Shown piece after piece: positions 24,823-53,095 of a stretch of 64,000 nt of DNA. The first letter of the stretch is position 1. Every line of letters starts with the position of its first letter. This stretch comes from a virus (Duplodnaviria; Heunggongvirae; Uroviricota; Caudoviricetes). Location of the stretch: the IMG/VR virus record IMGVR_UViG_2576861193_000004, positions 32,001-96,000 of that record; one strand, written 5' to 3'. A model generated the notes under the pieces. The model ran no database searches. It saw only the letters and a program-made list of their open reading frames with translations, and had not been told where the DNA came from. The translations under genes were made by a program, and so were the position numbers.

Positions 24823-26079
24823 CTATCTAGAACCACCAAGAATAACACGGTTTTTGACTGGATACCTACGATGTACTGGATAGCCCAATGCGTCTGCACT
24901 ATGCTCAATGCCACCTGTCTTATCCATATCTCGTGTTCCAGGCTTGTAGATGACTTTTTCCAATGAATCAATCAAATGCTTGCACTTCGGATCGATATAC
25001 AGCCGGATATCTCCAGATGCGGTCATCAGCATTCGGTTAACAGCATTAACACGATCCGCAATTGGCGGGTGCTTTTTCGAATAATCGACACGTAAGAATC
25101 CCTTCTCTTTGAATATGTCGACGTCAGACTCCCCGCGAGCATGTTGGCGATAAGCACCTGCCGGATCTGGAAATACCGTTATCTGTGATTTCCAGCGCCA
25201 GAAGCGTCTCTCAAGCTCATCACAAACCTCTGCCGTGTTAGAGGAAAAGAGCACCAATTCATCAATTGCCCATAGCTCACCATTTGGCTGAGGTTGCAAA
25301 ATTACTGAAGACATCGGGTCAATGTTGAAGTCCTGCCCTACCCATATAGGCAACCGAGGGTTGAACTGAAGCGGTTTTACATGCACGTTACGATCGAACG
25401 GGTAGTAAACGCGCCCGGACATGTTCTCAAAGCTCGCCAGGTACTCCTGAGCGAACGATTTCGGGTCCATATCGTTCTTAGCAGCTTCAATTTCCGCCGT
25501 AGGCACAAACGGAGAATCGGCAGTTACAAACTGCCAGCTCTTCCACTGTCCCTTTCTTTGCAGCTCTACGTTCTGGCCTATAGTCCACAGTTTGTGAAAT
25601 TCCGAGAAGCCTTTTGGCGTACCAATGATCAGTGCACCGCCGCGTGTCGATGAAAGAGTAGGTCGTAACACCTTGTACCAGGTGTCAGCCTTCATATCCT
25701 GAAATTCATCAAGCACTACAAAATGCAACGCTACGCCGCGCAGAGTGTCAGGCTTATCAGCACCTTTGAGGGCGATCTCCGAACCGTTCTTCAACACGAT
25801 TGTCATCGTGGTGTCGTTCTTTTTCCTAACCCACTTACGAGGCAGAACTTCCTGTAGATCGTCCCACAAAATCTGGCGAGCCATCTGGTAAGTAGGAGCG
25901 ACATACCAGACCCTTTGCTTTTTTTCCTTTGCCGCCGCACGAATAATAGTGGAGATCGACAACCGGGATTTTCCCCAGCGTCGACCAGCACAAACAACTT
26001 TAAATCGATGCGGAGACTGGAAGACTTTCATCTGTCCAGAATGCAGTTGCACAAGACTGAGCGAGGACGGGATTGCCAT
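24823..26079 (-). CDS. terminase large subunit
   Basis: Walker A (CAGRRWGKS) and Walker B-like (VVLDEFQDM) motifs, nuclease-type C-terminus. Start overlaps terS stop. Confidence 0.8.
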   Translation of the reverse strand: MAIPSSLSLVQLHSGQMKVFQSPHRFKVVCAGRRWGKSRLSISTIIRAAAKEKKQRVWYVAPTYQMARQILWDDLQEVLPRKWVRKKNDTTMTIVLKNGSEIALKGADKPDTLRGVALHFVVLDEFQDMKADTWYKVLRPTLSSTRGGALIIGTPKGFSEFHKLWTIGQNVELQRKGQWKSWQFVTADSPFVPTAEIEAAKNDMDPKSFAQEYLASFENMSGRVYYPFDRNVHVKPLQFNPRLPIWVGQDFNIDPMSSVILQPQPNGELWAIDELVLFSSNTAEVCDELERRFWRWKSQITVFPDPAGAYRQHARGESDVDIFKEKGFLRVDYSKKHPPIADRVNAVNRMLMTASGDIRLYIDPKCKHLIDSLEKVIYKPGTRDMDKTGGIEHSADALGYPVHRRYPVKNRVILGGSR

Positions 26080-26711
26080 TATTCGTCCTCCCCTTCACTT
26101 CCATCATCTGTCGCATCAAATTCGCTTAGAGCTTCTTCTTCCAACGTCTCAAGCAATTCGTCATCGATGATTTCAGGCTCGTCGTCTTCCTGACGTAATT
26201 TCGCCACCTGGGAAGGCGTAAGCTCACCAAATACCAGGTTCGGAATTTCTTCCTCGTCATTTTCCGCATGATCCATGCCCAATGCTTTGGACGAAACTTC
26301 AAAGCATTTTGCAAGGGTATTACTGGCTCTCTGTAAGCTCTTGAGAGAATCCTCAATCGCCCCTAAAGGCCTACCCTCACGTTTGGCCGTAGTGACTTCG
26401 ACCATCACCATCTGCCCCAACGCATACGCCCAGCCGTCATAACGTGTACGACGTTCTTCTATCTTTTCCGCACGGGCTTTAGCGCGAAGCTCTGCGTCAG
26501 ATTTAAGAGACTCACGAACCATCTTCCCAACAGAGTCCGCGCCTTTCTCTAATCCTCGCTTTTTGAAATGTCTGGAGAGTGTTTCACGACGAATGCCGTA
26601 CTCTTCCTCCAGCTTTGAGAGTGTATATTCGCCTGACGTCCATTTGGCTTCAGCTTCGGCCCACTCCGCTGGTGTCAGGCGAGTTTTTACCTCGTCTTTT
26701 TCGACCGTCAT
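26079..26711 (-). CDS. terminase small subunit (putative)
   Basis: 210 aa with N-terminal HTH-like region and very acidic C-terminus, translationally coupled to terL. Confidence 0.6.
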   Translation of the reverse strand: MTVEKDEVKTRLTPAEWAEAEAKWTSGEYTLSKLEEEYGIRRETLSRHFKKRGLEKGADSVGKMVRESLKSDAELRAKARAEKIEERRTRYDGWAYALGQMVMVEVTTAKREGRPLGAIEDSLKSLQRASNTLAKCFEVSSKALGMDHAENDEEEIPNLVFGELTPSQVAKLRQEDDEPEIIDDELLETLEEEALSEFDATDDGSEGEDE

Positions 26712-26807
26712 AGATCCCTCTAAAACACACAGAGCGCGTCCATGCGCTCTAAAACAACTTGTTTACTGCATCTGCTAACCAACTTGTTTTCTGGGGTGTT
26801 TAATTAG

Positions 26808-26904
26808 GTCTGGGCATGTCTTATTAAGCCTGCTTCCGTATATATTTAATAAGTTACTTATTATTTATATATACAGAAGCAGGTCTTTAAATAAGCTCCC
26901 AGAC
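26808..26904. promoter_or_regulatory. compound inverted-repeat element upstream of terS (copy 1)
   Basis: Nested inverted repeats GTCTGGG...CCCAGAC and CTTCCGTATATAT...ATATATACAGAAG around TAATAAGTTACTTATTA. Near-identical copy at 58432-58535. Confidence 0.65.
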
Positions 26905-26907
26905 CGA

Positions 26908-27174
26908 TTACATCACCAGTAACTTCGCTTTGGCTCGACCTAAAGTGGTTAACCCAAGAGTTCGGCGGTGATAGCGATTGTCACTGCGTTGGCGCGTATG
27001 CCCTTTCTCCACCAGCCCCTTTTTTATCAGAGCGCGAATTGAGAACTGGATACTTTGCTTGGTTGTCTTGTACGGCAAAACTTCAAGCAATTCGTCCAGA
27101 TCAAGTAAATGACCTCGCTCATAACCGAGATTGAGCGTTTTGATGATGTCCTTTTGTTTATCGGTTAACGTCAT
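26908..27174 (-). CDS. small winged-helix DNA-binding protein (putative regulator)
   Basis: 88 aa, helix-turn-helix-like pattern, sits just upstream of the compound inverted-repeat element preceding terS. Confidence 0.4.
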   Translation of the reverse strand: MTLTDKQKDIIKTLNLGYERGHLLDLDELLEVLPYKTTKQSIQFSIRALIKKGLVEKGHTRQRSDNRYHRRTLGLTTLGRAKAKLLVM

Positions 27175-27183
27175 GGCAAATCC

Positions 27184-28074
27184 TTATGCCGGTAAAGCAA
27201 TTTCTAACGGTTTATCCAAAGGTTGTTTGTCGAATGCCAGCAGTGGCAGCGTGTCAGGCAGTCGACGACCAAAGTCAGGGTTTCGGTACACACCATACAA
27301 CGGAGACGTAAAGCTCAGGTTGTGAATGTCCTTGAGCAGCTTCACAATGCTGGCCTCGTCCACCAGACTGTCGGCAATGTCCTGAATCGTCGTGCCACGA
27401 TTCCGCCCAGCTTTTGCCAGGGAACTGTTCTTGTGGTAGTCCGCCACCAGATCACGCAGTGCACGGCGACGACGAGACTCGCTCATTGCGAACAACTCTT
27501 TGACGATCGCCTCGTTATCACCAGGGTCGGAACGGAAATGGCGCTGGAATACACGCAGTGCACTTTCATAGCTCTTCGGTCGCTCAGGGCGGATGAACTT
27601 AAACCCTGCTTTCATGGCGAAGGGATTGTATTTGCTCATCGAGGACTGGATCTCAATGATTGGCCGGTCATGCATCCTGCTAACCAGGTTAATCATTCGA
27701 TAAGAGACGCCTACGCCACGATACTGAGTATCCACAACTGAGCGACTGATCACCGCAAAGTTGTTATTCACGTACCGACCCCAGTACTGGTTAGCCACGG
27801 TGGTATTAGTGGTTGGTTTCAACTTAGGAAACATGCGGTGGCGAGGTGCCAGCAGTAGTTTCGGGTAAGCCATAACCACGACGCCCACCAGACGGTCATC
27901 AAGTTCGCAGCGATAGTAAGTTGGCGCGAAAGGTTTGCCGTCTGTTTTGTAGTGAAGCGACTTAAGAGCGTGCCAGTCCTCTACAGTTCCCTTTGTGACA
28001 GTCATTCGCTCCAGAAAGTCCAGATGACGCGGAAACTCTTCAGGGCGGTAGCGTTTAATGATGATGTCCGTCAT
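27184..28074 (-). CDS. hypothetical protein, possible GNAT-fold acyltransferase
   Basis: RGVGVS motif resembling the acetyl-CoA binding motif (R/Q-x-x-G-x-G/A). Last gene of a tightly overlapping four-gene cluster. Confidence 0.35.
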   Translation of the reverse strand: MTDIIIKRYRPEEFPRHLDFLERMTVTKGTVEDWHALKSLHYKTDGKPFAPTYYRCELDDRLVGVVVMAYPKLLLAPRHRMFPKLKPTTNTTVANQYWGRYVNNNFAVISRSVVDTQYRGVGVSYRMINLVSRMHDRPIIEIQSSMSKYNPFAMKAGFKFIRPERPKSYESALRVFQRHFRSDPGDNEAIVKELFAMSESRRRRALRDLVADYHKNSSLAKAGRNRGTTIQDIADSLVDEASIVKLLKDIHNLSFTSPLYGVYRNPDFGRRLPDTLPLLAFDKQPLDKPLEIALPA

Positions 28075-28736
28075 AAATGAACCTCATCATGACTACCATT
28101 GTGATATTCCACCTTCACGCGTTCTTTGTAGTGCTTGGTGATCTGCATATCCGGGCGCAGCGCGTTCTTCAGGTCTTCGTGAGTCGTCGCCACCATTACC
28201 GTCGCACCAACCTTTCGAGCGGCACGCTGGAGGTTAGATGCCACAACCTGAGCGGTTACACGGTCTAGAACAGCACCGAACTCGTCAGCAGCCCACACTT
28301 TAGCGCCTGACTCAATCAGTTTGGCAATCTTGAGACGATATTTCTGACCGTCTGACATTTCAGAAGGCTTGCGAACAAACAGATATGCATCGTTCAGACC
28401 AGCCATAGATAACAACCCAAGCGCATCGCTGGTCGTTTTGCCCAACTGATCGATGACGTTAACCTCATTATCGAAGGTAAAATCATCGATGGAGGCTACA
28501 GACAGCCCTTCATCCTTCATCTGTCGTTGCAACTCGCGCAGCACAACGGATTTGCCGGAACCGGATTGGCCGGTGATGTACACCACATCGCCCTGCTTCA
28601 CTTCCAGCTCCAGATTGTCGTAAAGCGTCCACTCTTTTTCGTCCAGGCCAAGCCCGAACGACTCAGCGATTTCCAACGTGCGCGTGGTTTTATTTACGCG
28701 TGTCTGAAACGATACGTTGATGATGTATTTGCTCAT
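28071..28736 (-). CDS. ABC-type ATPase (P-loop NTPase)
   Basis: Walker A GQSGSGKS, ABC-signature-like MSDGQKYR, Walker B VWAADEF. Overlaps both neighbours by 4 nt. Confidence 0.6.
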   Translation of the reverse strand: MSKYIINVSFQTRVNKTTRTLEIAESFGLGLDEKEWTLYDNLELEVKQGDVVYITGQSGSGKSVVLRELQRQMKDEGLSVASIDDFTFDNEVNVIDQLGKTTSDALGLLSMAGLNDAYLFVRKPSEMSDGQKYRLKIAKLIESGAKVWAADEFGAVLDRVTAQVVASNLQRAARKVGATVMVATTHEDLKNALRPDMQITKHYKERVKVEYHNGSHDEVHL

Positions 28737-29434
28737 GCAGCCATCTCCCCGGAAGAGATCTTCTCCGCATATGCCACAAATGCGTCTACACCGCTTTCTC
28801 CCGTCATTTCTTCCATATGGGCAAGCAAATCACCAACAACAATGGCAGAGCCAGCAGGGAGCGTTTTAAAGCCCAATACGTCGACAACACGTACTTCTTC
28901 CGCTGCAACTTCATGACTGATCTCGGTGTGTTCATCCTTCTGTCGTTTAGTTTCTTCGCCAAGATCGATAACTAGCGAGTCGGTGTCCATTTCTTCTGTC
29001 ATGCTGCCAACGAGAACATTCAACTCACGCTCTTCAAAGCCGAAAACCTCGATATCGTCCAGAACAAGCGACTCAAGCTCTTTCTGTAGCTTAATTGCAT
29101 CGTAATCAATGCTGGCAAGTCGGTTATCTTCAAGACGCTTCGCACGAACCTCGTCATCACTGAGATCATCGCGAACAATAACCGGTACGCGCTCAAGTCC
29201 AGCAAAAATTGCAGCCTCACGGCGGCCGTGGCCAGTAATAATTACGTCGTTCTTATCGACCGTAATTGGCTGGTCAAATCCGCGCTTTTTAATGGCTGCG
29301 GCCAGATCTCGGATCTGCTGTTCATCATGCTTTTTGGCATTCATCTCATAGGGAATAAGATCTGCCGGGTCGCGATATACGATTTCAAACTTTTTGGTCA
29401 TTACATACGCTCCTTGTAGTAGTCGACCAGCCAC
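28733..29434 (-). CDS. ParB/Srx-like nuclease-domain protein
   Basis: ParB N-terminal domain motif IITGHGRREAA, acidic C-terminal half. Confidence 0.6.
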   Translation of the reverse strand: MAGRLLQGAYVMTKKFEIVYRDPADLIPYEMNAKKHDEQQIRDLAAAIKKRGFDQPITVDKNDVIITGHGRREAAIFAGLERVPVIVRDDLSDDEVRAKRLEDNRLASIDYDAIKLQKELESLVLDDIEVFGFEERELNVLVGSMTEEMDTDSLVIDLGEETKRQKDEHTEISHEVAAEEVRVVDVLGFKTLPAGSAIVVGDLLAHMEEMTGESGVDAFVAYAEKISSGEMAA

Positions 29435-30099
29435 ACCAGAGCCTCACCAGCGTTTTCCATTTCATTGCCAGTATTAATTGCCTGGTCTTTGATGATGTTT
29501 TTTATGGTTTCTGCAACGCGATCTGACGCATCGAAAGTTACTTTGAAGCGCATGGTCTGATGTTCCGCACCGACACGTTCGGTTTTCTCTCGTTTGTCGG
29601 TATCGACAGGCTCATCACTACCACGAGACAACGCCTCCAGTGCTTCAAGGTCGATTGCCGCCTCTTTTGCTAAAACCATCGAGATTTCGTCGTCATACGG
29701 GGCGATTTCAGACAGTTGATAGTCAAGTTCTGACTGAATTTCTTCAATGAAGCGCTGCAATGCGATTTGGTCGTCTTCACCGTATCGCTCGTTGTCCACC
29801 AGTGACATCTGTTTAGCTACGACATCGCTAATTTTGCCCACAGAAAGCACCGGAACCGTTGAAATTCCTTGCTCAATAGCAGCACGCCAGCGATGTTCGC
29901 CGCCGAGGATTTCAAAAAATCCATCTTCAAGTTCACGAGCCAAAATTGGCTTAAAAAAGCCCAATTTTTCGATAGAACCTTTCAGTTTTTCAAAATTCTG
30001 CGCACCAACCGAATTGGTGTTCCAGGTATTCGGGCGAAGGTTGGCAACATCAACCTGCAAAATCGTGATTTTTACATCCATTTTATTGCTACAATCCAC
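29401..30099 (-). CDS. ParB/Srx-like nuclease-domain protein
   Basis: ParB box motif FEILGGEHRWRAA. Confidence 0.65.
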   Translation of the reverse strand: MDCSNKMDVKITILQVDVANLRPNTWNTNSVGAQNFEKLKGSIEKLGFFKPILARELEDGFFEILGGEHRWRAAIEQGISTVPVLSVGKISDVVAKQMSLVDNERYGEDDQIALQRFIEEIQSELDYQLSEIAPYDDEISMVLAKEAAIDLEALEALSRGSDEPVDTDKREKTERVGAEHQTMRFKVTFDASDRVAETIKNIIKDQAINTGNEMENAGEALVWLVDYYKERM

Positions 30100-30163
30100 T
30101 ATGTAATCACTTACTTATTATAATAGCCAAATAACATACAAAAGGCACTAAGGAAAGAGGTTT

Positions 30164-31723
30164 ATGACTGTTCGGATTGTATCTAACGCAGTAAATGCAC
30201 TTATTTCTGGCGCAGATGACAAGGTAAAGCAACTGGTGCAACAGATGTTGAGCTACGAAGTCGAGACTGGCGACTGGAAGGGCACAAGCACGATGTTCAA
30301 CTGGAGTAAAAACTCGTTCCCTGCTGGCTTTGCCAAGCCTGTAGCGGCGAACTTGAACAAGGCGGGCATCAAATGTGTTCATATCCGCAAAGACAAAGCC
30401 CCGGCGCTTGGAAAGCCAAATCCGGCGGTCAACCCATTCCCATACAATCCTGATTATGCATATCAGGATCAGACTGTGGAAACACTGGTTCGAGAGGGAA
30501 TGATGATTGCGCAGATCGCTACTGGTGGCGGGAAATCTAATGTTGCCTGCAAAGCAGCTGCACGTATCGGTCGAATGACATTATTTTTAACAACCCGCTC
30601 TGTTCTGATGTTTCAGATGGCCGAAAACTTCCAGAGATCCATCGACTACCGCGCCGAAAATGGCGAACCGTGGTTAAAAGACCAAAAGGTTGGAGTCATT
30701 GGCTCGGGTGAGTTCCAGGTATCACGACATATCAACGTCGCTACAGTTCAAACTCTGGCAAGTTTCCTTGAAGAACCACCACGCGATGCAACTCCAGATA
30801 AGAAGAGCTACCACCTCAAACGTCGGGACTTGGTGAAACGCTTCCTTTCAAGTGTGTCTCTTCTTATTCTGGAAGAGGCGCATGAGTCTTCAGGCTCTAA
30901 TTTCTATGACATCGCCAGATTATGTGCGAACGCAGACTATCGCCTGGCGCTTACGGCAACGCCGTTCATGAAGGATTCTACGGAAGCCAACATGCGTCTG
31001 ATGGCAGTGGCCGGGCGAATTGAAATAAAAGTCACGGAAAAGTATCTGATTGATAGAGGCATTCTGGCAAAGCCATACTTCCTTTATCATAAAGTTGCCT
31101 ACAAGCCGGACGAGGCCAGAATCAAGGCAGAACTTGCCAACAAACACCTCAATTTTAGAGTAGGTATGAGCACTGCCTACCAAAAGGCTTATCAGTTGGG
31201 GATCGTGTATAATTTGGGACGTAATGAGGCCATTGTTCGCGAAGCATTGCTCTATAAGCAACATTCTCTCAATTGTATGACTCTGGTTCGTCTTAAACGC
31301 CACGGGCAAATCCTGATGGAAATGATGAAAGAGTCCGGCCTTAGAGTTGACTTCATTTATGGGGAATCGAACCAGTCGACAAGGCAAGCAAAGCTGAACA
31401 GTTTAGCGTCTGGCGACATAGATGTTTTAATAGGCTCGACTATTCTGGATGTCGGTGTTGATGTGCCAAACGTTGGTGCGGTCATTCTTGCTGGTGGTGG
31501 GAAAGCAGAAGTTGAAATGAGACAACGTGTCGGTCGTGGCTTACGAGCCAAGAAGAATCAGGCAAACGTGTGTTTTGTCACTGATTTCATTGACATTAGC
31601 AACAAATACCTGTTGTCTCACTCTTATGAGCGAAAACACATCATCGACACCACACCTGGCTTTGCAGAAGGTGTATTGCCTGTTGATGGCGCATTCGATT
31701 TTGGAGTTCTGAAACGAGATTAG
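30164..31723 (+). CDS. SF2 DNA helicase (DEAH-type)
   Basis: Walker A ATGGGKS, motif II LEEAH, motif III TATP, motif VI-like QRVGRGLR. Confidence 0.8.
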   Translation: MTVRIVSNAVNALISGADDKVKQLVQQMLSYEVETGDWKGTSTMFNWSKNSFPAGFAKPVAANLNKAGIKCVHIRKDKAPALGKPNPAVNPFPYNPDYAYQDQTVETLVREGMMIAQIATGGGKSNVACKAAARIGRMTLFLTTRSVLMFQMAENFQRSIDYRAENGEPWLKDQKVGVIGSGEFQVSRHINVATVQTLASFLEEPPRDATPDKKSYHLKRRDLVKRFLSSVSLLILEEAHESSGSNFYDIARLCANADYRLALTATPFMKDSTEANMRLMAVAGRIEIKVTEKYLIDRGILAKPYFLYHKVAYKPDEARIKAELANKHLNFRVGMSTAYQKAYQLGIVYNLGRNEAIVREALLYKQHSLNCMTLVRLKRHGQILMEMMKESGLRVDFIYGESNQSTRQAKLNSLASGDIDVLIGSTILDVGVDVPNVGAVILAGGGKAEVEMRQRVGRGLRAKKNQANVCFVTDFIDISNKYLLSHSYERKHIIDTTPGFAEGVLPVDGAFDFGVLKRD

Positions 31724-41855: not shown

Positions 41856-43889
41856 TTACTTAACCTGGTGGCCTGGTTTAGCACCAGCATCCGGGCTTAA
41901 CAGGAAGATATCTTTCCCGCCGGGGCCAGCAGCCATCACCATGCCTTCGGAGATACCGAAGCGCATTTTACGCGGAGCCAGGTTAGCCACCATAATGGTG
42001 TGACGACCAATCAGTGCCTGTGGGTCTGGATAAGCAGAACGGATGCCTGAGAAGACATTACGCTTTTCACCACCGAGATCCAGTGTCAGACGCAGCAGTT
42101 TGTCAGAACCTTCGACAAACTCCGCGTTTTCAATCAGCGCCACACGCAGGTCAACTTTGGCGAAGTCGTCAAAGGTGATGGTTTCCTGAATCGGGTCGTC
42201 AGCCAGTGGGCCAGTTACCGGTGCAGCTGTGGCTTTCACTTCTTCTTTGGATGCTTCCACCAGTGCTTCCACCTGTTTCATATCGATACGGTTATACAGT
42301 GCCTTGAACGGATTCACTTTATGGCCCAGCAGCGGTTGCTGGATACCATCCCAGGTCAGTTCTGTATTCAGGAATGCTTCTGCACGTTCAGTCAGTTTCG
42401 GCAGTACCGGTTTCAGGTACGTCATCAGCACGCGGAACAGGTTAATGCCCATAGAGCAAATCGCCTGCAGGTCGGCATCGCGGCCTTCCTGCTTCGCCAC
42501 CACCCACGGAGCCTGTTCATCAACATAGCGGTTAGCCAGGTCAGCCAGTGACATGATTTCACGGATAGCTTTGCCAAATTCGCGGCTTTCCCACGCTTCA
42601 CCAATCACTTCAGCGGCATCAGTGAAGGTTTTGTACAGTTGCGGGTCAGCCAGTTCGCTTGCCAGCACGCCGTCAAAACGTTTGTTGATAAAACCTGCAT
42701 TACGGGAGGCCAGGTTAACCACTTTGTTCACGATATCGGCATTCACGCGCTGAACAAAATCTTCCAGGTTGAGATCGATATCATCAATGCGCGAAGAGAG
42801 TTTCGCAGTGTAGTAGTAACGCAGGCTGTCGGCGTCAAAATGATTCAGCCAGGTGCTGGCTTTAATAAAGGTGCCGCGAGACTTGGACATCTTCGCGCCG
42901 TTCACCGTCACATAGCCGTGAACAAACAGGTTGGTCGGCTTGCGGAAGTTGCTGCCTTCCAGCATGGCAGGCCAGAACAGGCTGTGGAAGTAAACGATAT
43001 CTTTACCGATGAAGTGGTACAGCTCGGCGGTGGAGTCTTTCTTCCAGTATTCGTCGAAGCTGGTAGTGTCGCCGCGTTTGTCGCACAGATTCTTGAAGGA
43101 ACCCATGTAGCCAATCGGCGCGTCCAGCCAGACGTAGAAATATTTGCCCGGTGCGTTCGGAATTTCAAAACCGAAGTACGGCGCATCGCGGGAGATATCC
43201 CACTGTTGCAGGCCAGATTCAAACCACTCCTGCATTTTGTTTGCCACCTGCTCCTGCAACGCACCGCTGCGGGTCCATGCCTGCAACATTTCGCTGAAAG
43301 AGGGCAGATCAAAGAAGAAGTGTTCAGAATCACGCATTACCGGCGTAGCGCCAGAAACCACCGATTTCGGCTCGATCAATTCAGTCGGGCTATATGTTGC
43401 GCCGCAGACTTCACAGTTATCGCCGTATTGATCTGGCGCTTTACATTTAGGACAGGTGCCTTTTACAAAACGGTCCGGCAGGAACATGCCTTTTTCCGGG
43501 TCGTACAACTGAGAGATAGTGCGGTTTTTAATAAAACCGTTCTCTTTCAGGCGAGTATAGATAAGCTCAGACAACTGACGGTTCTCTTCGCTGTGCGTCG
43601 AGTGATAGTTGTCATAGCTGATGTTAAAGCCTGCGAAATCAGTCTGGTGTTCCTGACTCATTTCGCCAATCATCTGCTCCGGTGTGATACCAAGCTGCTG
43701 TGCTTTCAGCATGATCGGCGTACCGTGGGCATCGTCGGCACAGATGAAATTAACCTCGTGGCCGCGCATTCGCTGGTAACGAACCCAGACATCAGCCTGG
43801 ATGTGCTCCAGCATATGGCCGAGGTGGATTGAGCCGTTAGCGTACGGCAGCGCGCACGTCACCAGAATTTTCTTCGCGACTTGGGTCAT
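41856..43889 (-). CDS. metG: methionine--tRNA ligase
   Basis: 677-aa product essentially identical by eye to E. coli MetG ([29 protein letters not shown]...KMSKS...). Track ORF begins at an upstream in-frame start; true ATG at 43889. Confidence 0.95.
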
Positions 43890-44046
43890 AGTAGGCATTA
43901 CTTCTTTGTAGTGAAAAGGGGCTTGATAGTAACAAAATGGCCTTATGTCTGCCATGTGATAACAGCATTTCTCATAAATGATTAAATGTCGTAGCTGGAG
44001 TACACTACAAGGCGACAATTGCGCAAATTAAAATAAAGGAGACGGG

Positions 44047-45147
44047 ATGAGCGAGTCCAAATCGCCGGATGCCCTGAGAGCAATGGTAGCCGGTACGCTG
44101 GCTAATTTTCAGCACCCAACCCTGAAACACAACCTGACTACGCTTAAAGCGTTACACCATGTTGCGTTGATGGATGACACACTGCATGTCGAACTAATCA
44201 TGCCTTTCGTGTGGAATAAGCCTTTTGAAGACCTGAAAGAGCAATGTAGTGGTGATCTGCTCCGTATCACTGGCGCAAAGGCTATTGACTGGAAGCTGTC
44301 GTACAACATTGCCACGCTTAAGCGCGTCAAAAACCAACCAGGCATTAATGGCGTTAAGAACATTATCGCCGTCAGCTCAGGCAAGGGCGGCGTGGGTAAA
44401 TCCTCCACGGCGGTAAACCTGGCACTGGCGTTGGCTGCTGAAGGTGCGAAAGTTGGTATTTTGGATGCCGATATCTATGGTCCATCAATTCCAACCATGC
44501 TGGGCGCGGAAAACCAACGTCCAACCTCACCTGACGGTACTCACATGGCACCTATCATGTCTCATGGCCTGGCAACCAACTCTATTGGTTATCTGGTCAC
44601 CGACGACAATGCAATGGTGTGGCGTGGACCGATGGCCAGCAAGGCGCTGATGCAGATGTTGCAGGAAACTCTATGGCCTGATCTGGACTATCTCGTTCTC
44701 GATATGCCGCCGGGCACTGGTGATATTCAGTTGACGCTGGCGCAGAACATTCCTGTAACTGGTGCGGTTGTGGTAACTACGCCGCAAGACATCGCGCTGA
44801 TCGATGCGAAGAAAGGCATTGTGATGTTCGAAAAAGTCGAAGTGCCGGTACTGGGTATCGTCGAAAACATGAGTGTGCATATTTGCAGTAACTGCGGTCA
44901 TCACGAGCCAATTTTTGGCACCGGTGGCGCACAGAAACTGGCCGAGAAATACAACACGCAGTTGTTAGGCCAAATGCCACTTCATATCTCTCTTCGTGAA
45001 GATCTGGATAACGGAACACCAACCGTTATTAGTCGTCCAGATAGCGAATTTACGGCTATTTATCGTGACCTCGCAGATCGCGTTGCTGCCCAAATGTATT
45101 GGCAAGGTGAAGTAATACCTGGCGAAATCGCATTCCGCGCAGTGTGA
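44047..45147 (+). CDS. apbC: iron-sulfur cluster carrier protein ApbC/Mrp
   Basis: P-loop GKGGVGKSSTAVNLA, CxxC motif (CSNCGHHEP), divergent from metG as in E. coli. Confidence 0.95.
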   Translation: MSESKSPDALRAMVAGTLANFQHPTLKHNLTTLKALHHVALMDDTLHVELIMPFVWNKPFEDLKEQCSGDLLRITGAKAIDWKLSYNIATLKRVKNQPGINGVKNIIAVSSGKGGVGKSSTAVNLALALAAEGAKVGILDADIYGPSIPTMLGAENQRPTSPDGTHMAPIMSHGLATNSIGYLVTDDNAMVWRGPMASKALMQMLQETLWPDLDYLVLDMPPGTGDIQLTLAQNIPVTGAVVVTTPQDIALIDAKKGIVMFEKVEVPVLGIVENMSVHICSNCGHHEPIFGTGGAQKLAEKYNTQLLGQMPLHISLREDLDNGTPTVISRPDSEFTAIYRDLADRVAAQMYWQGEVIPGEIAFRAV

Positions 45148-45184: not shown

Positions 45185-45574
45185 CTACATCACGGGACAA
45201 TCATCAAACTCGCCACTTCTTGCGTCGTTGATAATGTGAGTGATCACACCAAACACGGCATTGCTGCCCGTGCATCCATCGTCATCCTTTGGCAATGCTT
45301 CCTTCTTACCGGTTCTTAAATCCTCCAGATGCTGACGTGGGTACTTCCGGTATCTTTTTACGCGATATTCCCCATCCAGAGCGCATACAAGCAGAGAACC
45401 ATCAACCGGGGTAAGTGAGGAATCGACCACCAGCAATGCACCCTGTAATATTCCCTCACGATGATGACTATCAGCTGCCCTCATGAAGTAGGTCGCTGAA
45501 GGATGTCTAATTATCTGCTGATCAAGAGAAATACGGCTCTCAGCATAATCCGCCGCAGGAGAAGGGAAGCCCAT
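45185..45574 (-). CDS. UmuD'-like (HumD-like) S24 peptidase-fold protein lacking the N-terminal cleavable arm
   Basis: Aligns with UmuD from about residue 25 (GFPSPAADY...HPSATYF). Ser (DSH) and Lys (RVKRY) positions retained. In-frame stop 5 codons upstream of ATG, SD GAGGTG. Confidence 0.8.
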   Translation of the reverse strand: MGFPSPAADYAESRISLDQQIIRHPSATYFMRAADSHHREGILQGALLVVDSSLTPVDGSLLVCALDGEYRVKRYRKYPRQHLEDLRTGKKEALPKDDDGCTGSNAVFGVITHIINDARSGEFDDCPVM

Positions 45575-45592
45575 AGCGTTTTCACCTCAGAG

Positions 45593-45612
45593 TACTGTTT
45601 ATCCATACAGTA
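45593..45612 (-). promoter_or_regulatory. LexA (SOS) box
   Basis: TACTGTTTATCCATACAGTA matches CTGT-N8-ACAG; located about 20 bp upstream of the umuD'-like ATG. Confidence 0.75.
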
Positions 45613-45672
45613 TACATTAAAGATGCTTGAAGTGTGCAATAGCGCGATGCTTTGCGCTCGCCTGGTGGCGCG

Positions 45673-45936
45673 TTATTTTTTGGCTATATCTTCTTTCTGA
45701 TATACCGGATCGTTTCCTTTTGGCAGCAGGAGGCTTAACTGCCGGTAGTGCCGTAGCCGTTCCATGAAATAGGTGCGCAGGTTCTCAGGTTGCTCACGGG
45801 CTACCTGTTCCGCTATGACGGGTATGTTCAATCGCTCTTTGTAGGCAACCCCCCTGGCAGCCAGGTCAACGTTAACTTTATTCCTTTCTTCCTGGCTTTT
45901 AGCTGCTATGTTCCATTCGTTCATATTAAATCCCAT
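45673..45936 (-). CDS. hypothetical protein
   Basis: 87-aa ORF upstream of the LexA box and umuD'-like gene. Start uncertain (ATG 45936 or 45924), weak SD. Confidence 0.35.
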
Positions 45937-46392
45937 CCAGAATAATTGAATAACGGCTATTATTTAGTCGCCGCAATATCTTCAAAGTTTTTTTTCTCAC
46001 CCCATTGCTTTTTGCGCACAGCTTATCTGGCTTGCGGTGCGCGAAATGTAAATTCGCCTTCAGAGTTATCCACAAAGTTATGCACTTGCAACGGGGCCAT
46101 TTTCCTCATACCGTGTTTGCACACACAGGAAATGGATATTTTATTAATTGAATTTTATTAAATAATAATGATAAGGAGAAAATTTGAGATGTAATCATGA
46201 CATTAATAGATAGGGCCTGCATTACAGGCCCCAACTACATCAAGGAATTCACAGTTCCCTGATTTTTATACCGAAAACATGTGCCGTAAGTTCACGTTAA
46301 CGACTTTCTTTCACCGAATCCAACTATATAGAGGTTGGGTTTCTACGTCAACGTGAGAGCACGCAGCTTTACATTAGACGAGGATTACCCTG

Positions 46393-46530
46393 ATGATTGT
46401 ATTTTTTCAGTTTCTAAGTGCATTTTTAAATGCGCCTGTTCTTAGCCAAGTGCTGGCGATTGTCTTCATCGTGGTTCTGATATGGTTTTTCAAGTCAGTG
46501 ATAAACAGAGGCGTGCGCTGGCTTATTTAA
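46393..46530 (+). CDS. small hydrophobic peptide (45 aa, single predicted TM helix)
   Basis: ATG 46393 preceded by SD GAGGA at 9 nt. Sequence MIVFFQFLSAFLNAPVLSQVLAIVFIVVLIWFFKSVINRGVRWLI. Below the ORF-track size cutoff. Confidence 0.3.
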   Translation: MIVFFQFLSAFLNAPVLSQVLAIVFIVVLIWFFKSVINRGVRWLI

Positions 46531-47062: not shown

Positions 47063-48625
47063 ATGAAAATGACAAGTATTCAACAACGTGCAGAGCTTCA
47101 TCGTCAAATCTGGCAAATTGCTAACGATGTCAGGGGTTCGGTCGATGGATGGGATTTTAAGCAATACGTTCTGGGCGCACTTTTCTACCGTTTTATCAGC
47201 GAAAATTTTTCCAGTTATATTGAAGCCGGTGATGACAGTATCTGTTATGCGAAACTGGATGACAGCGTAATTACTGATGACATTAAAGACGATGCCATCA
47301 AAACTAAAGGCTACTTCATCTACCCCAGTCAGCTTTTCTGCAACGTAGCTGCGAAAGCAAATACTAATGACAGACTGAATGCAGATTTAAACAGCATCTT
47401 CGTTGCTATCGAAAGTTCTGCTTACGGTTATCCTTCAGAAGCAGACATCAAAGGTTTGTTTGCTGATTTCGATACCACCAGTAACCGCCTGGGTAACACC
47501 GTTAAAGATAAAAATGCCCGCCTGGCTGCGGTTCTGAAAGGGGTTGAAGGGTTAAAACTTGGTGACTTCAACGAACATCAGATTGACCTGTTCGGTGATG
47601 CCTATGAGTTCCTGATTTCTAACTATGCGGCAAATGCCGGTAAGTCAGGCGGTGAGTTCTTTACACCGCAGCACGTCTCCAGGCTGATTGCACAACTGGC
47701 AATGCATGGCCAGACCCACGTTAACAAAATCTACGACCCGGCAGCGGGTTCCGGCTCACTGTTGTTGCAGGCGAAAAAACAGTTTGATAACCACATCATC
47801 GAAGAAGGCTTTTTCGGTCAGGAAATCAACCATACGACCTATAACCTGGCGCGTATGAACATGTTTTTGCACAATATCAACTACGACAAGTTTGATATCA
47901 AGCTGGGTAATACACTGACTGAGCCGCACTTCAGAGATGAAAAACCGTTTGACGCCATCGTATCTAACCCACCGTATTCGGTGAAATGGATTGGCAGCGA
48001 TGACCCGACGCTGATTAACGATGAGCGTTTTGCCCCGGCTGGCGTTCTGGCCCCCAAATCCAAAGCTGACTTTGCGTTTGTATTACATGCACTGAACTAT
48101 CTTTCTGCCAAAGGTCGTGCTGCGATTGTCTGCTTCCCGGGTATTTTTTACCGTGGCGGCGCGGAGCAGAAAATCCGTCAGTATCTGGTCGATAATAACT
48201 ATGTCGAAACCGTGATTTCACTGGCACCGAACCTGTTCTTTGGCACCACCATTGCAGTAAACATTCTGGTGCTGTCTAAACATAAAACGGATACCAACGT
48301 TCAGTTTATTGACGCCAGCGAACTGTTCAAAAAAGAGACTAACAACAATATCCTGACCGATGCCCATATCGAACAGATTATGCAGGTATTTGCCAGCAAG
48401 GAAGATGTTGCTCATCTGGCGAAATCTGTCACGTTTGAGACCGTTGTCGCGAATGACTATAACCTGTCGGTAAGCAGCTATGTGGAAGCGAAAGATACTC
48501 GCGAAATTATCGATATCGCTGAGTTGAATGCAGAACTGAAAACCACGGTCAGCAAAATCGACCAGTTGCGTAAAGATATTGATGCGATTGTGGCTGAAAT
48601 TGAAGGCTGCGAGGTGCAGAAATGA
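47063..48625 (+). CDS. hsdM: type I restriction-modification methyltransferase subunit
   Basis: N-terminal HsdM pattern ([10 protein letters not shown]...[17 protein letters not shown]), N6-adenine MTase motif NPPYS, 520 aa as recalled for EcoR124I HsdM. Confidence 0.9.
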
Positions 48626-49857
48626 GCGAGTTGAGTTATCTGGAAAAATTGCTGGATGGGGTTGAGGTTGAGTGGTTGCCATTGGGGAAACTAGGTGAAT
48701 TAGTTCGTGGAAATGGATTGCCTAAGTCTGATTTTACCGAATCTGGGGTTCCTGCCATACACTATGGTCAGATATATACTTTTTACGGATTATCTACTGA
48801 AACAACAAAGTCATTTGTTTCCCATGAAACGGCGAAGAAGCTTAAAAAGGTTAACTCTGGTGATGTTGTTATTACTAACACAAGCGAAAATTTTACTGAT
48901 GTTGGTAAGGCGCTTGTTTATCTAGGTAAAGAGCAAGCTGTTACTGGTGGCCATGCAACTATTTTCAAGCCAAATAGCACTATTATTGGGAAATACTTTG
49001 CCTATTTCACGCAAACGGATTCTTTTGCAAATGAGAAAAGGAAATACTCCAAGGGAACTAAAGTAATTGATGTGTCTGCATCGGATATGGCGAAAATTAT
49101 TATCCCTATCCCCTGTCCGGAAAATCCCAAAAAATCCCTTGCTATCCAGTCTGAAATCGTTCGGATTCTGGACAAATTTACTGCACTTACCGCTGAGCTT
49201 ACCGCTGAGCTTACCATGCGTAAAAAACAGTACAACTACTATCGCGACCAATTGCTGAGTTTTAAAGAAGGTGAGGTTGAGTGGAAAACTTTGGGAGAAG
49301 TGGCTCAATACTCGAAAACAAGAATTAGTTTCGAACTACTTGATGAAAGGAATTATGTTGGCGTAGATAATCTGCTGCAAAACAGAGCAGGAAAATCATT
49401 ATCTAATCATGTACCCACATCAGGTAAATTAACGGAGTTTATACCTAACGATATACTGATTGGGAATATCCGCCCATATTTGAAAAAAATTTGGCAAGCA
49501 GATTGTATCGGTGGAACAAATGGCGATGTATTGGTTATTCGTTGCATAGATAGCTCAATAAATACCAGATATCTATATCAGATTTTGGCAGATGACAAAT
49601 TCTTTGAATACAACATGCAGCATGCTAAAGGAGCAAAAATGCCGCGTGGCAGTAAAGAGGATATAATGAAATACCCAATCCCTGTACCGCCACTCACCTT
49701 GCAAGCTCGCATTGTCGAAATACTCAACAAATTCGATACCCTGACAAACTCCATCACTGAAGGTCTTCCGCGTGAAATCGAATTACGCCAGAAACAATAC
49801 GAATACTACCGTGATTTACTGTTCAGTTTCCCAAAACCTGAAACTGTCAGTAATTAA
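48622..49857 (+). CDS. hsdS: type I restriction-modification specificity subunit, type IC-like
   Basis: Two target-recognition domains separated by a central conserved region carrying the TAELTAEL repeat. C-terminal YYRDLL repeat of the conserved motif. Overlaps hsdM stop. Confidence 0.9.
49186..49209 (+). repeat. 2 x 12-bp tandem repeat CTTACCGCTGAG encoding TAEL-TAEL in HsdS
   Basis: Perfect tandem duplication inside the hsdS central conserved region. Confidence 0.9.
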
Positions 49858-49978
49858 TTGACCATTGCTACCGACCGGGCCACCTTAACACCCGGTCTGT
49901 ATATAGACTATTTTTTACGCGCCGGAAGTCACTCTTAACGCCCTTCCGGCCCTTGCCAGGCGGCACAAAGGATGCGCT

Positions 49979-52900
49979 ATGACTCATCAAACACACACCA
50001 TTGCTGAATCCAATAACTTTATCGTCCTTGATAAGTACATCAAAGCTGAGCAAACAAGCGACAGCTACCAGAGCGAATCGGACCTGGAACGTGAACTGAT
50101 TCAGGACCTGCGGAATCAGGGTTATGAATTTATTTCCGTAAAATCACAGTCGGCAATGCTGTCCAATGTTCGGGAACAGCTTCAGAGCCTCAATGGTGTG
50201 ATGTTTAATGACAGCGAGTGGCGGCGCTTCACGGAGCAGTATCTGGACAATCCCAGCGATGGTATTCTGGATAAGACCCGTAAAATCCATATCGACTATA
50301 TCTGCGACTTTATTTTTGACGACGGGCGTCTTGAGAACATCTATCTGATCGATAAAAAGAATCTCATGCGCAACAAAGTGCAGATTATCCAGCAGTTTGA
50401 ACAGGCAGGTTCTCATGCTAACCGTTATGACGTCACGATCCTGGTTAATGGCTTGCCTCTGGTGCAAATCGAACTGAAAAAGCGCGGCGTGGCGATTCGT
50501 GAGGCTTTCAACCAGATACATCGTTACAGCAAAGAGAGTTTTAACAGCGAAAATTCCCTGTTTAAGTATCTGCAACTGTTTGTCATTTCTAACGGCACCG
50601 ATACCCGTTATTTTGCCAACACCACAAAGCGCGATAAAAACAGTTTTGACTTCACCATGAACTGGGCGAAATCAGACAACACGCTGATTAAAGACCTCAA
50701 AGACTTTACCGCTACCTTTTTCCAGAAACATACCCTGCTTAATGTTCTGGTGAACTACAGCGTGTTTGACAGTAGTCAGACGCTACTGGTGATGCGACCG
50801 TACCAGATTGCAGCTACCGAACGGATCTTATGGAAAATCAACAGCTCCTATAAAGCGAAAAACTGGTCTAACCCCGAAAGCGGTGGCTTTATCTGGCACA
50901 CCACTGGTTCCGGTAAAACACTGACCAGCTTTAAAGCCGCGCGTCTGGCAACTGAACTGGACTTTATTGATAAAGTCTTCTTCGTGGTCGACAGGAAAGA
51001 CCTCGATTACCAGACCATGAAGGAATATCAGCGTTTTTCGCCAGACAGCGTCAACGGCTCGGAAAATACCGCAGGTCTTAAACGAAATCTGGATAAGGAC
51101 GATAACAAAATTATCGTCACCACTATTCAGAAACTTAATAACCTGATGAAAGCAGAAAGCGACCTGCCTGTATACAATCAGCAAGTGGTGTTTATATTTG
51201 ATGAATGCCACCGCAGCCAGTTTGGAGAAGCGCAGAAAAACCTGAAGAAGAAATTCAAACGCTATTATCAGTTTGGTTTTACCGGCACCCCTATTTTCCC
51301 GGAAAATGCCTTAGGCTCAGAAACGACCGCCAGCGTATTTGGTCGTGAATTGCATTCGTATGTAATTACCGATGCGATTCGTGACGAAAAAGTGCTCAAA
51401 TTCAAGGTGGACTACAACGATGTGCGGCCACAGTTTAAGTCTTTAGAGACAGAAACTGACGAGAAAAAACTGAGTGCGGCTGAAAATCAGCAGGCGTTTC
51501 TTCATCCCATGCGTATTCAGGAAATCACGCAATATATCCTGAACAACTTCCGCCAGAAGACTCACCGTACTTACCCCGGCTCCAAAGGTTTTAATGCCAT
51601 GCTGGCAGTAAGCAGCGTGGATGCCGCGAAAGCCTATTACGCGACGTTTAAACGGTTACAAGAGGAAGCCGCTAATAAATCTGCTACCTATAAACCACTG
51701 CGTGTTGCGACAATCTTCTCCTTTGCCGCCAATGAAGAACAAAATGCCATTGGTGAAATTTCCGATGAAACTTTTGATACCAGCGCAATGGACAGCAGTG
51801 CTAAAGAGTTTCTTGACGCTGCAATTCGTGAGTATAACAGCTATTTTAAAACTAACTTCAGCACCGACAGTAACGGTTTTCAGAACTACTATCGTGATTT
51901 AGCCCAACGGGTTAAAAATCAGGATATCGATCTGTTAATTGTCGTTGGGATGTTTTTAACCGGCTTCGACGCTCCAACATTGAACACGCTATTCGTCGAT
52001 AAAAACTTGCGTTTTCACGGCCTGATGCAGGCATTCTCCCGTACCAACCGCATTTATGACGCTACTAAAACCTTCGGTAACATCGTCACTTTTCGGGATC
52101 TGGAACGCTCAACCATTGATGCCATAACGCTGTTTGGTGATAAAAATACTAAAAATGTGGTGTTAGAAAAGAGTTATGCAGAGTATATGGAAGGCTTTAC
52201 TGATGCTGCTACAGGTGAAGCTAAACGCGGCTTTATGGCAGTAGTTTCAGAACTGGAACAACGGTTCCCTGACCCTGCCAGTATTGAAAGTGAAAAAGAG
52301 AAGAAAGACTTCGTTAAACTGTTTGGCGAATACCTGCGTGCCGAGAACATCCTGCAAAACTATGATGAATTTGCCACGCTGAAAGCCCTGCAACAAATCG
52401 ATCTTAGCGATCCTGTTGCGGTAGAAAAATTCAAAGAAGAACATTATGTGGATGATGAAAAGTTCGCTGAATTGCAAACGATTCGTCTCCCTGCTGAACG
52501 CAAGATTCAGGATTATCGTTCTGCCTATAACGATATTCGTGACTGGCAGCGCCGCGAGAAAGAAGCTGATAAAAAAGAAAAATCAACCACTGACTGGGAT
52601 GACGTGGTTTTTGAGGTCGATTTGCTGAAGTCTCAGGAAATAAACCTGGATTATATCCTTGGACTGATTTTCGAACACAACAGACAAAATAAAGGCAAGG
52701 GCGAAATGATCGAAGAGGTCAAACGCTTAATTCGTTCAAGCCTGGGGAACCGGGCGAAAGAGGGCCTGGTGGTCGATTTTATTCAGCAAACGAACCTGGA
52801 TGATTTACCAGACAAAGCCAGCATCATTGACGCGTTCTTTACCTTTGCTCAACACGAACAGCTACGTGAAGCAGAAGCGTTGATTAAAGAAGAAAATCTC

Positions 52901-53095
52901 AATGAAGAGGCGGCGAAACGCTATATTCGCACGTCTTTAAAACGCGAATACGCCACCGAAAATGGCACAGAATTAAACGAGACATTACCAAAACTTAGTC
53001 CGTTAAACCCGCAATATAAAACGAAAAAACAGACGGTTTTCCAGAAAATCGTCACGTTTATTGAAAAGTTCAAAGGAGTAGGTGGGCAGATATAG
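49979..53095 (+). CDS. hsdR: type I restriction enzyme endonuclease/translocase subunit
   Basis: 1038 aa with SF2 helicase motifs (TGSGKT, DECHRS, GFTGTP). Confidence 0.9.

Follow-up and report, generated by a model that had tools for sequence, protein, structure and literature searches.

A putative split ABC-GNAT enzyme with two ParB-like partners beside the terminase genes of an SSU5-like phage-plasmid and its possible role in DNA acylation

Phage thymine dioxygenases of one clade (5mYOX clade E) are inactive in Escherichia coli unless a cognate ParB-like protein is co-expressed. This partner has a nucleoside triphosphate (NTP)-binding domain and a C-terminal domain and lacks a DNA-binding domain, and the dioxygenase genes co-occur with terminases in 19% of contigs (bioRxiv 10.1101/2025.08.14.668559). 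The ParB-like ATPase DpdB is described as driving preQ0 insertion by DpdA (PMC12839542), and GTP is bound by a ParB fold in fusion with an acetyltransferase (PMC12704722). In the Dnd system, a modifying enzyme is combined with a ParB-superfamily protein, an ABC ATPase, and a small DNA binder (PMC10853773). Finally, the pairing of an ABC ATPase with a GNAT domain was predicted to be a base-acylating DNA modifier by Iyer et al. (Nucleic Acids Research [NAR], 2013), and the prediction was restated in 2021 with phage pT24 as a named example (Viruses 2021, PMC7824862). In this work, we examined a five-gene cluster in a 64,000-nucleotide (nt) stretch of tailed-phage DNA (positions 32,001 to 96,000 of IMG/VR record IMGVR_UViG_2576861193_000004; hereafter the window, to which all positions refer). 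The cluster encodes two ParB-like proteins (ParB1 and ParB2), an ABC ATPase, a GNAT-like protein, and a small basic protein.

The window is assigned to an SSU5-like phage-plasmid because the region 26700-30200 is 98.4-99.2% identical to the Escherichia phages CMS-2020a, PhiR41_1, and Cyrano, 85% identical to Salmonella phage SSU5, and about 81% identical to Klebsiella phage-plasmids. We propose, with moderate confidence, that the cluster encodes a multi-subunit enzyme for ParB-assisted, ATP-dependent covalent acylation of phage DNA before or during packaging. The genes, in order of transcription, are as follows (lengths in amino acids, aa).

29401-30099, minus strand: ParB1; the open reading frame (ORF) starts at GTG, and the likely start is the ATG at 30081, as annotated in PhiR41_1 (226 aa)
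28733-29401, minus strand: ParB2, from its ATG (222 aa); the listed ORF begins at GTG 29434
28071-28736, minus strand: ABC ATPase (221 aa), with an ABC_tran match and the full ABC motif set
27184-28074, minus strand: GNAT-like protein (296 aa), with a GNAT-fold model and an RGVGVS motif
26908-27174, minus strand: small basic protein (88 aa), phrog_900

The central evidence comes from relatives in which the third and fourth genes are one. Searching 1.84 billion representative proteins with a GNAT-family profile yielded 898 proteins, many of them 450-500 aa long and matched in their C-terminal half; the N-terminal half of these is an ABC_tran domain. In an alignment of 32 fusions, the motifs are those of the window proteins, both in the ABC part (FGLG, GDxxYITGxSGSGKS, SDGQKYR, DEFxxxLDR, and ATTHxDL) and in the GNAT part (HY, SRVVxxPxYRGxGxG, NPF, and Y..W.NP). 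In phmmer searches, the ABC protein of the window (E 1e-51 to 1e-63) and its GNAT protein (E 1e-10 to 1e-21) hit the same fused ORF in all 80 loci, archaeal and bacterial. Tblastn with the ABC protein found fused genes in the phages Jace (2e-19), pT24 (2e-11), and SL25 (3e-10), and pT24 is the phage named by Iyer et al. (2021). The fused type corresponds to COG2401, [quoted passage not shown], whose name the GenBank record of Cyrano gives to the GNAT gene. In the window, the ABC and GNAT genes stand in the same order as the fused halves, adjacent and with an ATGA overlap. Judged by this homology, they are a split version of the COG2401-type ABC-GNAT fusion. Because the two are one polypeptide in thousands of other phages and proviruses, we conclude that the window proteins work together.

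The fusions come in two sizes. Phages with a short form of about 356 aa include SL25 (Pseudoalteromonas), Jace (Rhodococcus), and EastWest (Arthrobacter); this form has more than 7,192 relatives (protein clusters) at E<=1e-10 in a collection of 5.8 billion proteins. The long GNAT form of the window, with a helical insertion, recurs in archaeal fusions of about 465-500 aa. When the profile of the long family was compared with that of the short Jace form, the match was weak (probability 29%, E 5.8e-4), and the putative link between the two subfamilies draws mainly on the ABC half, the shared DW...HY and YxGxG motifs, and the identical context. Some ABC-GNAT representatives (among P0177, P0204, P0164, and P0154) are predicted to be fused to a family B DNA polymerase; in this group, the ABC domain of one contains an intein (LAGLIDADG domain), and another has a TFIIB repeat at its end. 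These forms could be gene-calling read-throughs.

The sequence-only reading that preceded this work had described ABC-type motifs in the ATPase, and the complete set is indeed present: Walker A (GQSGSGKS at residue 56), signature (MSDGQ, 127), Walker B with its DE (VWAADE, 147), and H-loop (TTH, 184). The ABC_tran match is strong (E 5.8e-13, 50.1 bits against a cut-off of 25), and no NCBIfam transporter model reached its cut-off for this protein. No permease gene was found in the cluster, and none is annotated in the neighborhoods of relatives that we inspected. The name "ABC transporter" given by GenBank and PHROGs was rejected because no permease is present, and the protein is best described, from its motifs and context, as a stand-alone ABC-type nucleotide-binding domain without a membrane partner.

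Assignment of the 296-aa protein to the GNAT superfamily is based on structure prediction and a conserved loop; Pfam gave only a sub-threshold GNAT match. The AlphaFold2 (AF2) model is confident (predicted local distance difference test [pLDDT] 88.1, predicted template modeling score [pTM] 0.80), with a core at about 24-160, a helical insertion at about 169-254, terminal strands at 259-277, and a conserved C-terminal strand and tail. The RGVGVS motif noted earlier lies at residues 119-124, within the most conserved segment of the family. Among 34 homologs, 37 alignment columns are invariant, including R119 and G122. The protein thus combines the fold with the beta4-alpha3 loop that defines the superfamily (R/Q-x-x-G-x-G/A), here in the form R-x-x-G-x-S, so the acyl-CoA (acyl-coenzyme A)-binding loop is intact, together with conserved core residues. 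It is strongly basic (isoelectric point [pI] 9.8, net charge +15), as is the GNAT part in three subfamilies (median pI 9.4, 9.7, and 10.7). None of its 341 homologs has a Pfam domain, and several carry the JGI name "ABC-type ATPase with predicted acetyltransferase domain".

The earlier reading had pointed to Mu Mom as a precedent. In a viral structure library, a phage Mom protein ranked fourth for the GNAT model, and several "endonuclease-like" myovirus proteins of about 550 aa aligned with the model over 250-270 columns. The latter may be the Mom-nuclease fusions of Iyer et al. (2021). A search of PDB sequences with the GNAT family profile gave nothing beyond one coiled-coil match (E 0.2), and NCBIfam gave no match for the GNAT protein or TerS, the terminase's small subunit. 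Since no match to Mom or any other family was found in Pfam, NCBIfam, or the PDB sequence search and the similarity stays at the level of fold, membership in the Mom family was rejected. In databases (phrog_886; RefSeq records of SSU5, nickie, and RHEph10), the 296-aa protein widely goes by the name "ABC transporter ATP-binding subunit" despite its lack of any ABC domain. This name appears to be inherited from COG2401, in which the acetyltransferase is fused to an ABC ATPase.

That two proteins of the cluster have a ParB/Srx fold, as had been noted, is supported by Pfam ParB_N matches above cut-off in both ParB1 (E 3.4e-13; phrog_723 E 2.7e-79) and ParB2 (E 1.4e-8; phrog_930 E 2.6e-112), which share 28% identity. 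Both have the N-terminal fold of the ParB-CTPase clade with box II GxxR and box III xN, retaining the box II arginine and the box III asparagine. ParB1 consists of a CTPase-type N domain and a conserved C-terminal domain, and its closest solved relatives are Spo0J, ParB, and Noc. Its box II reads GGEHRWRAA and its box III VDNER; N21, G61, and N97 are invariant and R64 nearly so. The protein is acidic (pI 4.55), particularly in its C-terminal half, and is an additional paralog confined to the SSU5 supergroup. In ParB2, the NTP-binding domain is followed by a truncated middle region, an acidic linker, and a C-terminal domain that is helical. Its AF2 model (pLDDT 81) is confident at 1-96 and 172-221 and poor at 137-167, and only two short helices occupy the place of the DNA-binding domain of canonical ParB. 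The best Foldseek matches are ParB, Noc, and KorB bound to CDP or CTPgammaS, over about 130 columns. GHGR, DN, and N21 are invariant among 33 homologs of ParB2, which shares the motifs LIPYxxNxxxH and GHGR with the single ParB beside fused ABC-GNAT genes; by these motifs, ParB2 is the counterpart of that single ParB in other phages. The databases label both proteins "ParB-like partition protein". The ParB2 orthologs of PhiR41_1 and nickie are named "DNA methyltransferase", probably because the closest profiles are the ParB N-domains of ParB-methylase fusions.

A ParB-CTPase-fold protein is a near-constant partner of ABC-GNAT and is sometimes fused to it. Three Bathyarchaeia loci have ParB_N, ABC, and GNAT in a single ORF. 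A ParB_N gene of about 180 aa overlaps the start of the fused gene in SL25, Jace, EastWest, and three metagenomic contigs, and among 80 sampled IMG/VR loci, 76 offer space for an upstream ORF, with a ParB ORF directly upstream in 65.

Other neighbors point to chemistry on DNA. In Jace (gp85-gp88; L088 3447-6212), a tight same-strand run encodes ParB, ABC/GNAT, aspartate 1-decarboxylase (PanD, which makes beta-alanine), and a family III CoA-transferase, and the acyl group in this lineage could thus derive from beta-alanine. In a Thermincola prophage, a gene for a Dam-like methylase overlaps ABC/GNAT and is followed by Amidoligase_2; in a Fredinandcohnia prophage, the order is ABC/GNAT, Amidoligase_2, a small gene, the large terminase subunit (TerL), and an SPP1-type portal (Firmicutes loci L007 5102-8344 and L008 5977-8397). 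One archaeal ABC-GNAT copy is followed by DndB and DndC. Taken together with the fusions and the basic GNAT part, these neighbors favor an acyl-CoA-dependent reaction on DNA.

We infer DNA as the substrate, acyl-CoA as the donor, the roles of the ParB proteins and of ATP, and restriction evasion as the purpose from these observations. In the proposed mechanism, ParB1 and ParB2, whose NTP-binding residues are kept, would bind NTP, dimerize, and either tether the enzyme to DNA or switch it on there. Such a loading or activating role has precedents in the ParB-like partners of phage thymine dioxygenases and in DpdB for DpdA. ATP-driven closure of an ABC dimer would position or open the DNA, and the basic GNAT domain would move an acyl group from acyl-CoA to an exocyclic base amine. 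In this phage, the donor would probably be acetyl-CoA or a different acyl-CoA of the host; in phage Jace, it might be beta-alanyl-CoA. Site recognition or regulation may come from the small basic protein, and the expected benefit is that virion DNA would be shielded from host restriction. A more far-reaching version is offered tentatively. SSU5-like phage-plasmids, thousands of tailed phages, and archaeal proviruses might all put an acyl mark on DNA bases by an ATP-driven ABC-GNAT enzyme that NTP-gated ParB clamps load or activate beside the packaging signal, so that only virion-bound DNA is marked. Lineages would differ in the acyl group, for example, beta-alanyl in phages like Jace and an amide-extended form in those with an amidoligase.

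Several points weigh against DNA acylation. The case for DNA as the substrate comes from context only, and we found no report of modified bases in SSU5-like, nickie-like, or related phages in the searchable literature. The window's cluster contains no genes for acyl-donor synthesis. The ABC domain is nearest to transporter-type nucleotide-binding domains, not to the DNA-handling clade of SMC, Rad50, and DndD. The tight link to terS and terL also fits a role in packaging. Of the three functions offered in the sequence-only reading (DNA modification, anti-restriction, and packaging accessory), DNA modification is nonetheless the best supported, if unproven, and packaging is kept as a rival. A known defense or anti-defense system was rejected, as PADLOC gave generic matches only (ParB N domain of type II methylases; P-loop ATPases such as mad3, PtuA, and others) and none for the GNAT protein.

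The layout of the cluster bears on all these readings. The five ORFs described earlier were all found on the minus strand, sharing direction with terS, terL, and the portal gene, and are thus transcribed toward the late operon as had been stated; the minus strand carries all tail, head, and packaging genes (about 176 to 26711). The claim that each gene overlaps the next by 4 nt stands for ParB2/ABC and ABC/GNAT (both ATGA) and falls for the other two junctions: ParB1 and ParB2 overlap by 1 nt (TAATG, given the ATG start of ParB2), and a 9-nt gap separates the GNAT gene from the small gene. The packing is nevertheless tight. In order from ParB1 to the small protein, the PHROGs families are 723, 930, 293, 886, and 900. 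SSU5 and the Klebsiella relatives have an extra 84-aa ORF between ABC and GNAT, and more distant relatives have further small ORFs inserted at module junctions. Because small ORFs interrupt the junctions in these relatives, translational coupling is not a fixed feature. A scan for sigma-70 promoters found three sites against 4.9 expected by chance, and since there is no excess we claim no transcript structure.

The remaining features of the region, all outside the module, are as follows.

26712-26907, no strand: structured intergenic region (196 nt) between the module and terS
26079-26711, minus strand: terS (210 aa); phrog_867 E 4e-100, N-terminal helix-turn-helix (HTH), acidic tail
24823-26079, minus strand: terL; Terminase_6N (E 3.1e-9) and Terminase_6C
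30164-31723, plus strand: UvsW-like superfamily 2 (SF2) helicase, divergent from ParB1; ResIII, DEAD, and Helicase_C matches

The SSU5-supergroup order is helicase (divergent), ParB, ParB, ABC, GNAT, small protein, terS, terL, and portal. A 3.3-Mb chromosome contig, a contig of Ectothiorhodospira, nickie, and RHph_N1_15 keep it at about 40-55% protein identity, and because such distant orthologs keep the order we regard the five genes as real and not as chance ORFs. The helicase is a constant neighbor of the module in the SSU5 supergroup only, with the same place in the distant relatives L003 and L004, nickie, and RHph_N1_15. Tblastn with the GNAT protein found 31 phage records, Stenotrophomonas and Xanthomonas phages among them. 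The module is present in virulent siphophages of about 110 kb that infect Pseudomonas (nickie), Rhizobium (RHEph10/RHph), Stenotrophomonas, and Xanthomonas, and also in the virulent phage ANB28. Conservation of the neighborhood, a check suggested at the outset, thus extends to distant relatives, virulent phages included.

The small protein is kept after the GNAT gene throughout the SSU5 supergroup. It matches phrog_900 (E 1.9e-45), has a pI of 10.2, and has orthologs at 19-45% identity with KQ and LPY motifs in common. Its earlier description as a small winged-helix protein holds for the gene itself; the winged helix is indicated by weak, sub-threshold profile matches (LexA_DNA_bind E 0.072; Lrs14/Sta1 E 0.003-0.004; a PADLOC CARF-family model E 4.5e-5). 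We consider the protein a probable winged helix, which may recognize a DNA site or act in regulation.

The intergenic region next to it contains an AT-rich near-palindrome centered near 26855 and flanked by CTGCTTC(C/T)GTATATAT inverted repeats, two AAACAAGTTGTTT-type palindromes upstream of terS (26752-26768 and 26777-26793), and a GC hairpin with a T-run (26751-26730) immediately ahead of the ribosome-binding site of terS. Two linear GenBank records, those of SSU5 and Cyrano, stop at about window position 26846. This region may be a genome end (cos), a loading site for a protein such as ParB or TerS, or a regulated terminator.

Such a site would suit a second explanation, which we consider unlikely, in which the module is a packaging accessory. 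The ParB proteins would load near cos or pac and, together with ABC-GNAT, prepare, mark, or regulate the packaging substrate or the terminase, for example by acylating TerS, TerL, or portal or by organizing concatemers. The module abuts the structured region where the SSU5 and Cyrano records end, and its proximity to terminase genes recurs widely. Among 65 IMG/VR loci of the short fused form, at least 51 have a same-strand TerL downstream, at a median gap of 370 nt that leaves room for one small gene. SL25 and three metagenomic contigs have the order ParB, ABC/GNAT, terS, terL, and portal. In Bathyarchaeia, a Terminase_6-type TerL lies directly upstream of ABC/GNAT in 50 of 80 loci, in a tailed-provirus cassette; in the loci inspected, the TerL and ABC/GNAT ORFs abut or overlap. 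However, the module pairs with differing terminase families (Terminase_6, Terminase_3, and T7-like TerL) and portal families (DUF4055, Phage_portal_3, and SPP1), and therefore it has not co-evolved with any single packaging machine. Nor is the link obligatory, as pT24, Jace, and EastWest have intervening genes or no adjacent terminase, and proven DNA-modification genes (5mYOX with ParB) cluster with terminases too. The PanD and CoA-transferase, amidoligase, Dam, and DndBC neighbors suggest DNA chemistry instead.

The archaeal cassette (L010-L086, from Bathyarchaeia and other archaeal metagenome-assembled genomes [MAGs]) has, at its end, a GcrA-like HTH protein, TerL, and ABC-GNAT. Several copies were seen in a single MAG (at least seven contigs of binchicken_co43_159), and conservation of the cassette ends just past ABC-GNAT, where the portal gene would normally come after TerL.

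An acyltransferase that acts on something other than DNA is likewise improbable in our view. Its target would be a host or phage protein (as for phage Rac, which acetylates RNA polymerase), a tRNA or other RNA, or a small molecule such as a polyamine; it would serve host takeover or counter-defense, and the ParB proteins would be NTP-sensing regulators. GNAT enzymes are very versatile, and the ATPase-GNAT fusion TmcA/NAT10 performs ATP-dependent acetylation of RNA. A methionyl-tRNA synthetase (MetRS) gene on the phage-plasmid and a tRNA-Met near the module in nickie provide a weak lead in this direction. Against such a target, the constant partner of the enzyme is a ParB of DNA-clamp type, at times fused to it, and no RNA-binding domain turned up. 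The genes around it encode DNA methylase and Dnd proteins as opposed to factors for translation or transcription, and in most phages its expression comes from the packaging side of the genome.

Hardly credible is a non-canonical partition or maintenance system of the prophage-plasmid, with ParB1 and ParB2 as centromere binders and the ABC ATPase as motor: two ParB-fold proteins on a plasmid-living element and the "partition" labels of databases speak for it, yet the five-gene core is found in virulent nickie and relatives and in the Rhizobium, Stenotrophomonas, and Xanthomonas phages, the ParB/ABC-GNAT core is found in phages of 34-50 kb not known as plasmids, ParB2 lacks a full DNA-binding domain, and a GNAT enzyme has no place there. 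No ParA-type gene was found in or beside the cluster, and the ParA-binding motif ([LFI]G[KR]G[LFI] / LG[KR]GL) is absent from both ParB proteins. The only KGGxGKS ORF in the window (44047-45147) lies 14 kb away and was rejected as a missing ParA, as it encodes an Mrp/ApbC-like protein beside MetRS. The sequence-only reading was therefore right that the cluster lacks a ParA-type (KGGxxK) ATPase and is unlike a classical partition system; the same gene order in virulent siphophages of about 110 kb argues this as well.

This Mrp/ApbC-like P-loop NTPase gene is divergent from the full-length MetRS gene (41856-44018, minus strand). The pair recalls the chromosomal metG-mrp, and CMS-2020a, Cyrano, and PhiR41_1 have both genes too, at 96-98% identity. 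At 45185-46500, a Peptidase_S24 (UmuD/HumD-like) gene and its flanks are about 84% identical to humD-lxr-hot of P1 and P1-like phages, which suggests, from sequence similarity, that the P1-like and SSU5-like phage-plasmid families have exchanged this type of region. The element has a complete type I restriction-modification system (47063-53095) consisting of hsdM (47063-48625), hsdS (48622-49857), and hsdR (49979-53095), which would bear on any test of self-protection by DNA modification. A thymidylate-synthase-like protein of 371 aa is encoded at 62880-63995, with Pfam Thymidylat_synt matches in two stretches; ThyA of E. coli is shorter, at about 264 aa. Genes for dCMP deaminase occur near the module in the distant relatives L003 and L004.

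If DNA acylation is confirmed, the module would write a base acylation other than that of Mom, a chemically unseen DNA mark, in thousands of phage genomes and in archaeal proviruses. Phage DNA hypermodification would gain a new chemical class and the ParB clamp a new use, and the emerging rule that ParB-fold NTPases are loaders or activators of DNA-modifying enzymes would be widened. It would also bear on restriction evasion by resistance-carrying phage-plasmids and could yield DNA-labeling reagents. If not, attention turns to a terminase-linked function of a very common gene pair. The relatives of the window provide a tractable model for the 2013 prediction, namely, PhiR41_1 on E. coli K-12 MG1655 and SSU5 on Salmonella LT2, both hosts being standard laboratory strains. 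Should lysogens keep the module silent, the plasmid prophage may serve as an unmodified control. The genes themselves are already in PHROGs and GenBank under wrong names, and the "ABC transporter" and "partition protein" annotations of module genes are widespread. Our literature searches for COG2401 or the name of the fusion returned no papers, and we found no experimental work on the module; searches for SSU5 or Nickievirus together with modification or restriction returned nothing functional.

Among known systems, the closest is the COG2401 ABC-GNAT system, to which both halves of the window enzyme are homologous, in the same order, with shared motifs and a ParB partner. Its acylation of DNA is not a new idea, as it was already predicted by Iyer et al. 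(2013, as cited in 2021), and the published function of the pair is itself a prediction. A system of this kind has thus been recognized computationally since 2013, to judge from the 2021 account; this instance differs in its architecture, with the enzyme split in two genes, the two ParB paralogs, the extra small basic protein, and the long GNAT form. Compared with ParABS systems, including those of the P1 and N15 prophage-plasmids, the module shares the N-terminal CTPase fold of ParB with its box II arginine and box III asparagine. It differs in having no ParA or ParA-binding motif, a truncated DNA-binding region, an occurrence in virulent phages, and a link to an acyltransferase. Mu Mom, a GNAT-fold adenine N6 methylcarbamoylase (PDB 8bv8), acts alone, without an ABC ATPase or ParB. 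No sequence-level relationship to the window GNAT protein was found, and many acetyltransferases that do not act on DNA score as well as or above Mom.

The Dnd system has the same cast of parts, with DndB of the ParB superfamily, DndD as ABC ATPase, DndE as small DNA binder, and DndA/C as enzymes. However, DndD is a coiled-coil ABC ATPase whereas the window has a minimal transporter-like domain, and the Dnd product is backbone sulfur as opposed to the predicted base acylation. Similarity between the components is at most at the superfamily level, the sole PADLOC match to Dnd being that of the ABC protein to DndF (E 0.0022). The 5mYOX/ParB and DpdA/DpdB systems resemble the module in having a ParB-fold NTPase without a full DNA-binding domain beside a modifying enzyme, with genes often near terminases. 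Their enzymes are a dioxygenase and a transglycosylase without an ABC ATPase, in contrast to the GNAT and ABC proteins of the window, and the need for ParB, demonstrated there, is predicted here. The closest proven mechanistic analog of an ATPase and a GNAT domain acting together on nucleic acid is TmcA/NAT10, an RNA cytidine acetyltransferase that produces N4-acetylcytidine (ac4C) and uses ATP to present the base.

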